Below, piece after piece: positions 1,387-24,989 of a DNA stretch of 27,324 nt. The notes below the pieces were generated by a model. It saw only the letters and a program-made list of their open reading frames with translations, did no database searches and was not told the origin of the DNA. Every line of letters starts with the position of its first letter. Position 1 is the first letter of the stretch. The DNA comes from Candidatus Freyarchaeota archaeon (GTDB lineage Archaea; Asgardarchaeota; Jordiarchaeia; Jordiarchaeales; Jordiarchaeaceae): the NCBI GenBank assembly GCA_030587365.2, contig JAUQZE020000364.1, forward strand, positions 1 to 27,324. Reading direction: 5' to 3'. The position numbers and the translations under genes are program-made.

Positions 1387-1461
1387 TTCCCTCCTCCCTT
1401 TTAAGTCAGCAAACTAAGGTGTTTCAATTCTTAACTAGTTTATTTTTTAAAAGCGATATTT

Positions 1462-1740
1462 TTATCGGTACCTAATACTAAAATTTTTAAACTCGCCGGT
1501 GTAGTCTTCGAAGATAACTTTTATGTCGGCCACTTTAGCAGATGGGGGCCCCTGCTTGCAAAATTTAATCATTTCTTCGACTTTTTCTTTCTCTCCTTCG
1601 AATACGGCTTCTACTCTTCCATCGCTGAGATTTCTCACCCATCCCGTTACTCCCCTACTATCAGCTTCATCTTTTGTGTACGACCTAAAAAAGACGCCTT
1701 GCACTCTTCCGCTGACAAATACATGGGCTCTAACTTTCAT
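1462..1740 (-). CDS. acyP: Acylphosphatase
   Basis: The sequence VRAHVFVSGRVQGVFFRSYTKDEADSRGVTGWVRNLSDGRVEAVFEG...FSIRY is the classic acylphosphatase fold signature, and the length (~92 aa) fits. The start is moved to ATG 1740, where GGTGAT lies 4 nt upstream. Confidence 0.9.
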   Translation of the reverse strand: MKVRAHVFVSGRVQGVFFRSYTKDEADSRGVTGWVRNLSDGRVEAVFEGEKEKVEEMIKFCKQGPPSAKVADIKVIFEDYTGEFKNFSIRYR

Positions 1741-23716: not shown

Positions 23717-23882
23717 TGGCGGGCTGCGCGAGATTTGAATTCGCAAGCCCTGACAAGGGTCAAGGGCTACTCGCGACCACCTGGTTAAAAGCATCACCCT
23801 TCGGAGGAAAACCTGCGAAGTCAGGCGCTCTACCTAGCTCCTCGGCTAAACGTTTTCCGTCGCGCCTCTGAGCTAGCAGCCC
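23717..23882 (-). tRNA. tRNA-Lys(UUU) interrupted by three BHB introns, at 23838-23867 (D-loop, 30 nt), 23793-23821 (anticodon stem 30/31, 29 nt) and 23740-23769 (T-arm 53/54, 30 nt). CCA is encoded.
   Basis: Spliced product: GGGCTGC TA GCTC AGCTAGGTA GAGC G CCTGG CTTTTAA CCAGG TGGTC GCGAG TTCAAAT CTCGC GCAGCCC G CCA (77 nt, canonical cloverleaf). Each intron is bounded by two 3-nt bulges separated by a 4-bp helix, for example CGCC/GGTG for the 30/31 intron and CGCG/TGCG for the 53/54 intron. Confidence 0.85.
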
Positions 23883-24048
23883 GCACATTCAGAGCAAAGT
23901 AAAATAATCTTTAGTAACTTATATTCTTTATCCTTTTAATATTCTAAAGCGTTATTTCTGAGTTTCTGTTTCGTCCTAGAACCATTGAAATAGTCCTCAT
24001 TCTAAAAAATAATTTTTTGTCAGTTTTTTCTTAAGGAGAATTAAGTAT

Positions 24049-24184
24049 TGGCGCCCAAGCCGAGATTTGAATTCCCGCCACAATACACGTATTGTTGAGG
24101 TCTCGGGTTCCCGCCATAAAACGACCCGTTTTATGTCCACGACGTGACAGGCCGCGATGATAGGCCGGGCTACACCACTTGGGC
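24049..24184 (-). tRNA. tRNA-Asp(GUC) interrupted by two BHB introns, at 24109-24136 (variable loop 45/46, 28 nt) and 24072-24101 (T-arm 53/54, 30 nt). CCA is encoded.
   Basis: Spliced product: GCCCAAG TG GTGT AGCCCGGCCTA TCAT C GCGGC CTGTCAC GTCGT GGAC CCGAG TTCAAAT CTCGG CTTGGGC G CCA (78 nt). It has the G73 discriminator and 4-nt variable loop typical of tRNA-Asp. The 4-bp BHB helices are TCGT/GCGG and CCCG/CGGG. Confidence 0.83.
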
Positions 24185-24781: not shown

Positions 24782-24989
24782 GGGGACGTAGTGTAGTCAG
24801 TGTTGTTCAAAACATGTTTGTGGTTTTGAACGCGACTAGGCAGCACGGCAGGCTCCAGAGGCTGTGAATATTGGCTGAGCTGACCAGAAGATGATGAACT
24901 TCTGGAGCAGTGAGCCAGAGAGACTTGCTAGTCGTGAGTTCAAAGTGGAGAAACAATGTTTCTCTATGGAAATCTCACCGTCCCCACCA
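24782..24989 (+). tRNA. tRNA-Trp(CCA) interrupted by three BHB introns, at 24801-24839 (D-loop, 39 nt), 24859-24922 (canonical 37/38, 64 nt) and 24945-24972 (T-loop 59/60, 28 nt). CCA is encoded.
   Basis: Spliced product: GGGGACG TA GTGT AGTCAGGCA GCAC G GCAGG CTCCAGA CTTGC TAGTC GTGAG TTCAAAT CTCAC CGTCCCC A CCA (77 nt). BHB central helices are AGTC/GACT (D-loop), CTCC/AGAG with one C-A mismatch (37/38) and TTCA/TGGA (59/60). Each is flanked by 3-nt bulges and an intron hairpin. Confidence 0.87.
24859..24922 (+). ncRNA. Box C/D guide RNA embedded in the tRNA-Trp 37/38 intron; predicted to guide 2'-O-methylation of C34 of its own tRNA
   Basis: D' CUGA (24880-83) is followed by a 7-nt spacer and C' AUGAUGA (24891-97). 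The 12-nt guide ACTTCTGGAGCA (24898-909) precedes a D-like GUGA (24910-13). A degenerate C box, GUGAAUA (24864-70), could covary with GUGA. TCTGGAGC is the reverse complement of tRNA positions 31-38 (GCTCCAGA), and the N+5 rule lands on C34. Confidence 0.65.

Follow-up and report, generated by a model that had tools for sequence, protein, structure and literature searches.

A conserved, functional-looking tRNA-Lys(UUU) gene with three predicted BHB-type introns in a Jordarchaeia genome

Results

Organization of the locus and in-silico splicing

The DNA under study (the window, meaning the whole stretch of 27,324 nucleotides that was analyzed) belongs to the MAG Candidatus Freyarchaeota archaeon (genome G000), a member of the Jordarchaeia/Freyarchaeia (Asgard) with 3.5 Mb, 42% G+C and a completeness of 87.7%. 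Read on the minus strand, positions 23882-23717 start with GGGCTGC and end with GCAGCCC-G-CCA. The features of this region are listed below; the gene as a whole was assigned by in-silico splicing and by orthology to CP147778.1:1427332-1427497.

23891-23929, minus strand: upstream blocks AAAGAATATAAGT (-47 to -35), TATYTTA (-24 to -18) and TGCTCT (-14 to -9), conserved in the alignment of 6/6 orthologues
23717-23882, minus strand: tRNA-Lys(UUU) gene, a 166-nt precursor with four exons, three introns and an encoded CCA
23868-23882, minus strand: exon 1, tRNA positions 1-15 (acceptor 5' strand, U8 and A9, D-stem 5' strand GCTC, A14 and G15)
23838-23867, minus strand: intron 1, 30 nt, D-loop 15/16, relaxed BHB
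23822-23837, minus strand: exon 2, positions 16-30 (remainder of the D-loop with G18 and G19, D-stem 3' strand GAGC, G26, and CCTG as 27-30)
23793-23821, minus strand: intron 2, 29 nt, anticodon stem 30/31, strict hBHBh'
23770-23792, minus strand: exon 3, positions 31-53 (G31, loop CTTTTAA, CCAGG, variable region TGGTC, T-stem 5' strand GCGAG)
23740-23769, minus strand: intron 3, 30 nt, T arm 53/54, HBh'
23717-23739, minus strand: exon 4, positions 54-76 (T-loop TTCAAAT, CTCGC, acceptor 3' strand GCAGCCC, discriminator G, CCA)

The upstream blocks are the probable archaeal BRE/TATA promoter and 5' leader. Excision of 23867-23838, 23821-23793 and 23769-23740 gave a 77-nt product that ARAGORN called as tRNA-Lys(ttt). 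The cloverleaf of this product has a 7-bp acceptor stem, the D stem GCTC/GAGC, the T stem GCGAG/CTCGC, the T loop TTCAAAT, discriminator G and CCA; the anticodon UUU lies in the 7-nt loop CTTTTAA, which is closed by the 5-bp stem CCTGG/CCAGG. Reading of the spliced sequence located U8, A14, G18, G19, A21, U33, G53, T54, C56, A58 and C61. The predicted junctions read CCTG^GCTTTTAA, GCTCAG^CTAGG and GCGAG^TTCAAAT (the caret marks the bond).

All sequence elements quoted in the initial annotation were found at their coordinates on the minus strand, and ARAGORN, applied to the product of all three excisions, confirmed that removal of the 29 nt at 23793-23821 yields the Lys(UUU) arm CCTGG-CTTTTAA-CCAGG. 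The idea that splicing creates the anticodon has to be corrected: UUU is contiguous in exon 3, and it is the anticodon stem which is completed by joining G30 to G31. Judged by its predicted anticodon arm and by orthology, 23717-23882 is a tRNA-Lys(UUU) isoacceptor gene. It also qualifies, from the predicted junctions (strict in one intron, relaxed in two), for the multi-intron class of archaeal tRNA genes with BHB introns. Two other kinds of gene organization were ruled out. The four exons are collinear, on the same strand and within 166 nt, which is not the arrangement of a split or permuted tRNA gene; and inserts of only 29-30 nt, with no Rfam match, are not group I or group II introns, in which the ribozyme core has hundreds of nucleotides.

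ARAGORN made no tRNA call for the unspliced 166-nt precursor and recognized no tRNA in the window. Rfam/Infernal detected no tRNA in the window at gathering thresholds and none at the locus alone at E<=10, where the single match was a spurious miRNA. These results bear on another reading of the locus, namely that the pseudo-arm CCTG-ACTTCG-CAGG serves without splicing and that the RNA is not a Lys tRNA. It is indeed possible to draw a stem of 4 bp whose loop contains UCG; the 3' strand of this stem, which had been described as missing, is present as CAGG. However, the loop has 6 nt, as had been noted, and neither program recognized a cloverleaf in the unspliced sequence. Moreover, the letters of the loop lie within the inner helix of intron 2 and are conserved as a helix, and an entirely different sequence is found there in unrelated 30/31 introns. 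We consider a role for the unspliced arm close to inconceivable.

Geometry of the splice sites

The BHB layout was scored with a script as an outer helix h, a 4-bp central helix H, two 3-nt bulges on opposite strands and an inner helix h'. Each 3-nt bulge was taken to be cut between its second and third nucleotides. This rule, attributed to Marck and Grosjean 2003, reproduces the canonical 37/38 case.

The site at 30/31 has a central helix CGCC/GGTG with 4/4 pairs, bulges TG^A and AT^G, an inner helix CTTCG/CGAAG of 5 bp and an outer helix (A)GAG/CTT(T) of 4 bp, in which A21-G24 pair with C32-U35. The description of this motif as a perfect hBHBh' thus holds, and it is the sole strict motif among the three. 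At 53/54 the central helix CGCG/TGCG (4/4 pairs) and the inner helix AGCCCT/AGGGCT (6 bp) of the intron 23740-23769 were likewise as annotated, with bulges AG^T and AA^T, but the outer helix is absent (0 bp). The D-loop site at 15/16 has GCTC/GAGG with 3/4 pairs, bulges AG^A and AG^C, an inner helix GGC/GCC of 3 bp followed by a GAAAA-capped hairpin, and an outer helix that was scored as 3 bp and contains TA/TA. The central helix of this intron carries a G.G or G.A mismatch in every orthologue; G10 is never paired. The mismatch in the D-loop motif and the missing outer helix at 53/54 imply that both sites would need an enzyme with relaxed specificity.

BHB-like patterns ("H=4, h'>=3") are frequent in shuffled sequences, with about 10 per 166 nt, and an enumeration of strict BHB motifs was therefore rejected as uninformative when taken as stand-alone proof. 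The situation is different at junctions that are fixed by the cloverleaf. The pairs formed there number 13 at 30/31, 10 at 53/54 and 9 in the D-loop, which by our own arithmetic (0.375 per pair) corresponds to a chance per junction of about 3e-6, 5e-5 and 4e-4, respectively. BHB motifs located exactly at three junctions that the cloverleaf sets independently are far beyond chance.

Folding of the precursor, which the initial annotation had proposed as a check, did not favor the motifs. A conformer with all BHBs and the acceptor stem had -46.4 kcal/mol, as compared with -71.9 kcal/mol for the unconstrained MFE, and is thus 25 kcal/mol less stable. In the RNAfold MFE structures, computed for the whole precursor and for the individual introns with their flanks, symmetric 3x3 internal loops are present and offset bulges are not. 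The MFE is consequently unusable to confirm BHBs, and it is for this reason that the geometry was scored explicitly.

Conservation in the genus

The Lys(UUU) gene is kept in 5/5 genomes of the same genus. A pattern scan of the named genomes identified it in "Candidatus Freyarchaeota SRVP19_Freyarchaeia-1" (CP147778.1, G005), in Ca. Jordarchaeum madagascariense (G001) and in three "Jordarchaeia" MAGs (G002, G003 and G004). When the introns are removed in silico, all six copies, i.e. the host gene and those of its five congeners, give a Lys(ttt) of 77 nt according to ARAGORN. The mature tRNA is identical in G000, G002, G003 and G004, and all differences among these four copies are intronic. The G005 gene at CP147778.1:1427332-1427497 has 80% identity to the host gene over the precursor; both are 166 nt long with the same anticodon and three introns, the coordinates of the second and third introns are in the same register, and the Asp(GTC) and Trp(CCA) neighbors are shared. 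Differences between G000 and G005 affect 10/77 exon positions, 8/47 paired intron positions and 17/43 unpaired intron positions.

Covariation was analyzed in a set of five collinear sequences, four of which are nearly identical. In these five sequences the cloverleaf pairs are kept to 100%, as compared with 32-52% in slid controls, and three pairs (5-68, 7-66 and 52-62) show compensatory changes in the diverged G005. The three BHBs are paired to 99.4% in the same set (26-53% in slid controls), with one compensatory and several one-sided changes. The compensatory change, from U-A to C-G, is in the 53/54 inner helix of G005. A shuffle control of the BHB covariation was not significant (116/500) with five sequences, four of them near-identical, because the sample is too small.

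Boundary of the D-loop intron

The 30-nt D-loop intron at 23838-23867 was confirmed in so far as its excision yields Lys(ttt); its boundary is ambiguous over three registers, which give the same product because AG is repeated at both junctions. Among these registers only 15/16 provides a usable BHB. The published annotation of the orthologue is different again. Valentin-Alvarado et al. 2024 (Nat Commun; PMC11291895) list it in Supplementary Data 4 as gene 5, CP147778.1:1427332-1427497, Lys TTT, with three introns, an Infernal score of 66.1 and the remark "possible pseudo", and the first intron is given as 10 nt (1427358-1427367).

The gene could thus be functional with its D-loop insert processed in some other manner, such as a 10-nt intron, a 34-nt excision that leaves a 6-nt D-loop, or a route that does not involve a BHB. 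The incomplete central helix (3/4 pairs), the three equivalent registers and the deviating tRNAscan call are in line with this view, as is the MFE structure of G000, which uses the perfect palindrome TAGCTC/GAGCTA with GCTC/GAGC pairing. In addition, the preprint of Goswami et al. (10.64898/2026.10.13.758758) gives canonical motifs in only about one third of D-arm inserts. However, G001, G002, G004 and G005 lack the GCTC/GAGC alternative, whereas a 3-bp H with a TA/TA outer helix occurs in all. With the published boundaries, the G005 gene yields a product of 96 nt in which ARAGORN finds no tRNA, while the BHB-guided excision of 29 nt gives a normal tRNA of 77 nt.

Further support for 15/16 comes from tRNA-Lys(CUU). 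The D-loop AGCTAGGTA of the 15/16 product is also uninterrupted at the same point in the Lys(CUU) of genome G006. The Lys(CUU) paralogue of the host (G000:C2:16775-16912, plus strand) has introns at 15/16 and 53/54 and none at 30/31; by reading, its 15/16 intron forms a perfect BHB with a GCTC/GAGC helix at the same site. This paralogue has no encoded CCA, and the sequence there is GCCT. BHB geometry, paralogue and orthologues together support an intron of 29-30 nt at 15/16, and processing of the insert with other boundaries or by another route appears quite improbable. The mature D-loop predicted from the 15/16 model is GCTCAGCTAGGTAGAGC.

An intron of 29-30 nt instead of 10 nt means that the pseudogene flag is probably an artefact. 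The remark "possible pseudo" on what is apparently the sole Lys(UUU) gene of a closed genome would then probably result from the mis-set D-loop intron. We nevertheless considered that the gene may be a decaying pseudogene and that AAA is read by another tRNA which is still to be found. This view draws on the published flag, on the modest Infernal score of 66.1 for the orthologue and on the incompleteness of the MAG (87.7%). The low score is explained by the mis-set intron, however, and the published table of the closed Freyarchaeia genome (PMC11291895), with one Lys TTT and one Lys CTT, holds no other Lys TTT. The identity of the mature sequence in four species despite diverging introns, the three compensatory stem changes in G005, the intact universal tRNA positions and the conserved promoter-like upstream blocks also argue against decay, which we regard as highly improbable. 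The comparative evidence points to a real, conserved and functional-looking three-intron tRNA-Lys(UUU) gene.

Detection by annotation programs

The expectation that automated annotation would miss the gene was correct for ARAGORN and for Rfam/Infernal, even at E<=10. It was not correct for tRNAscan-SE 2, which called the orthologue as Lys TTT with three introns, albeit with the first intron mis-set and the "possible pseudo" remark. According to Goswami et al. (preprint 10.64898/2026.10.13.758758), the D-arm inserts of Asgard tRNA genes are systematically overlooked or wrongly delimited by tRNAscan-SE.

In the 3.5 Mb of the host genome we obtained 7 Rfam tRNA matches (all 78-107 nt) and about 8 ARAGORN candidates, several of which are spurious with introns of 1-3 kb. 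Since these programs detect a small part of the tRNA set of this MAG, inferences on completeness or decoding that are based on tRNAs are unreliable for such MAGs. The practical value of the present analysis lies in annotation; as a discovery it carries little weight.

Two other hidden tRNA genes were observed in the window, and both were missed by ARAGORN and Rfam. A tRNA-Asp(GTC) with two introns at 24049-24184 (minus strand) is 87% identical to the Freyarchaeia Asp GTC at 1426998-1427132, and a tRNA-Trp(CCA) with several introns at 24782-24989 (plus strand) is 83% identical to the Freyarchaeia Trp CCA at 1426291-1426079.

Splicing enzymes and decoding

The genome encodes two EndA paralogues, which are 31% identical (L013 1204-1782, plus strand; L014 1474-2067, minus strand). 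The best matches of EndA 1 (192 aa, L013), in which the catalytic His is kept, are 3p1z_B, 3ajv_B and 2zyz_B, all of them catalytic subunits from heterotetrameric enzymes. EndA 2 (197 aa, L014) has a Thr at the column of the "KEHS" His of the M. jannaschii EndA. The catalytic EndA contains a 9-residue insert with RK (GIRKPTSPQ region) that is absent from the non-catalytic paralogue, and this insert is possibly the L1/Crenarchaea-specific loop. Kaneta et al. 2018 (PMC5829648) describe an (alpha-beta)2 EndA with an L1 loop in Asgard archaea and link it to broad substrate specificity. The EndA pair would fit this broad-specificity architecture, with a heteromeric state that we infer from the two sequences. 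An RtcB ligase is also encoded (577 bits). The predicted machinery, i.e. a relaxed-motif EndA together with RtcB, is thus present in the genome.

A BLAST search of the mature sequence against the 87.7% complete assembly, a check suggested in the initial annotation, found no second Lys(UUU) gene; only the Lys(CUU) paralogue matched. AAA codons are common: a neighboring ORF of 1117 codons contains 34 AAA and 28 AAG.

An insert in the rtcB gene

The rtcB gene of the host (G000:C483:124-1614, minus strand; L015 121-1614, minus strand) lies outside the window and carries a 30-nt insert between LPD and AHQGYGFPIGG. The insert has BHB geometry, with the central helix CCCG/CGGG, bulges AC^A and AA^G and a structured inner stem. 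It is common to the host and all five congeners (L021-L025), with a length of 29 nt in G005 and 30 nt elsewhere. Each copy contains an in-frame stop, which is TAA in G001 and G003 and TGA in G000, G002 and G004; the first in-frame stop of the G005 insert is likewise TGA. Removal of the insert restores the RtcB motif LPDAHQGYGFPIGG in 6/6 genomes. We rejected a reading of the TGA as selenocysteine because congeners have TAA at this place and the insert in G005 has 29 nt. The mRNA of the ligase itself probably contains a BHB intron at this place. rtcB is not mentioned in the passages on tRNA introns of Valentin-Alvarado et al. 2024 (PMC11291895), and the term has 0 occurrences in the preprint 10.64898/2026.10.13.758758.

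Intron turnover and recurrence at 30/31

The copy in G001 (L006 = G001:C222, DXJA01000363.1, about 1425-1599, minus strand) keeps the D-loop and 30/31 introns, and its T arm is uninterrupted. Its third insert of 38 nt adjoins the anticodon loop and forms a helix of 10-11 bp that is one nucleotide off the ideal BHB register. This intron is best placed at the canonical position 37/38, an assignment less secure than the rest. Brute-force excision combined with ARAGORN was rejected for siting it, since ARAGORN accepts many excision products, including some with long variable arms; the placement rests for this reason on stem pairing and BHB scores. With the third intron at 53/54 in five species and, as predicted, at 37/38 in Ca. 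Jordarchaeum madagascariense, there is turnover within one genus.

The sister family was searched with two exon patterns. The 5'-exon pattern returned Lys(CUU) genes only, while the 3'-exon pattern returned one Lys(UUU), in genome G009 (L020). This gene is interrupted at 30/31 by an intron of 12 nt (H CGCC/GGCG) and at the same D-loop site by an insert of 16 nt; its T arm is intact. A scan of metagenomes with exon 3 gave 126 Lys(UUU) matches, 104 of which are without interruption at 30/31 and in the T arm. In eight distinct metagenomic Lys(UUU) genes, an insert is located precisely at the 30/31 junction; these inserts are unrelated and 13-71 nt long, and every one of them has an H of 4/4 pairs and 4 bp or more in the outer helix. 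As an addition to what was known, we report from these sequence comparisons that predicted 30/31 introns recur in unrelated Lys(UUU) genes.

A BLAST search of the three introns against their own genome found no further copies; hence there is no evidence for intron transposition. The comparative data, with 15/16 and 30/31 interruptions common to the sister family, contribute modestly to the understanding of tRNA intron gain and loss in Asgard archaea.

Discussion

The initial proposal, namely that BHB-type introns interrupt this tRNA-Lys(UUU) gene at three places (D-loop, 30/31 and 53/54), is supported by in-silico splicing, by conservation and covariation of the orthologues and by the splicing enzymes encoded in the genome. 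Taken together, these data make it very probable that the minus strand at 23882-23717 encodes the tRNA-Lys(UUU) of this archaeon, in the sole Lys(UUU) gene found in the assembly, and that this gene contains three BHB introns, which would be spliced by a two-subunit EndA and RtcB.

In the maturation pathway that we propose, a precursor of about 166 nt would be transcribed with introns at 15/16, 30/31 and 53/54. Base pairs would link the D-stem 5' strand to the 3' end of intron 1, and C48-G51 to that of intron 3. The partners of the D-stem 3' strand, together with G26, C27 and C28, would be the 3' end of intron 2 and C32-U35. Formation of the D, anticodon and T arms would have to await splicing, since one strand of a mature stem is taken up by each BHB (the D-stem 5' strand, the D-stem 3' strand plus 26-28, and 48-51). 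An EndA composed of one catalytic and one non-catalytic paralogue would cut after the second nucleotide of each bulge. RtcB would join the four exons to the canonical 77-nt tRNA with its encoded CCA.

The recurrence of unrelated introns at one bond raises the question of what determines their position. We tentatively suggest, as a view somewhat less likely than not, that the 30/31 junction of tRNA-Lys is intrinsically "pre-adapted" as a BHB site, such that the positions of introns and splits are set by the sequence of the host tRNA and not by shared ancestry among the introns. The exon bases A21-G24, being complementary to C32-U35, would provide the outer helix; any insert that ends with GGYG-NN would then complete the central helix with C25-R26-C27-C28. 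If true, this would explain the unrelated introns of 12-71 nt at 30/31 in two Jordarchaeales families and at least 8 other metagenomic variants. It would likewise explain why the split tRNA-Lys genes of Nanoarchaeum and Staphylothermus are broken at the same bond.

The gene itself is not new. The orthologue, the phenomenon and the intron positions have been published, and the gene is ordinary for its lineage. In the closed Freyarchaeia and Atabeyarchaeia genomes, introns occur in 92-95% of the tRNA genes, often several per gene and at non-canonical positions (PMC11291895). The locus is one example of the intron-rich tRNA genes that Valentin-Alvarado et al. 2024 and the preprint by Goswami et al. 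describe from Asgard archaea, of which more than half have multiple introns and in which inserts are located preferentially at BHB boundaries. The gene is unnamed in this preprint, where "Lys" has 0 occurrences.

Outside the Asgard archaea, tRNA genes with up to three BHB introns are known from the Thermoproteales/Crenarchaeota (Sugahara 2007, 2008, in Yoshihisa 2014; PMC4090602). The positions 30/31 and 53/54 are among the known non-canonical ones, and the relaxed hBH/HBh' motifs depend on an alpha2beta2 EndA (PMC4090602). The number of introns, their positions and the relaxed motifs are shared between the multi-intron genes of the Thermoproteales and the gene described here; the host, in contrast, is an Asgard archaeon. 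Intron transposition, which has been described in the Thermoproteales, left no sign here, where the introns are without other copies in the genome. Finally, the split tRNA-Lys(CUU) genes of Nanoarchaeum equitans and Staphylothermus, which are broken at 30/31 (PMC4090602), represent the same tRNA family with the same BHB site. There, two genes are joined in trans, whereas the exons of the Jordarchaeia gene are collinear.
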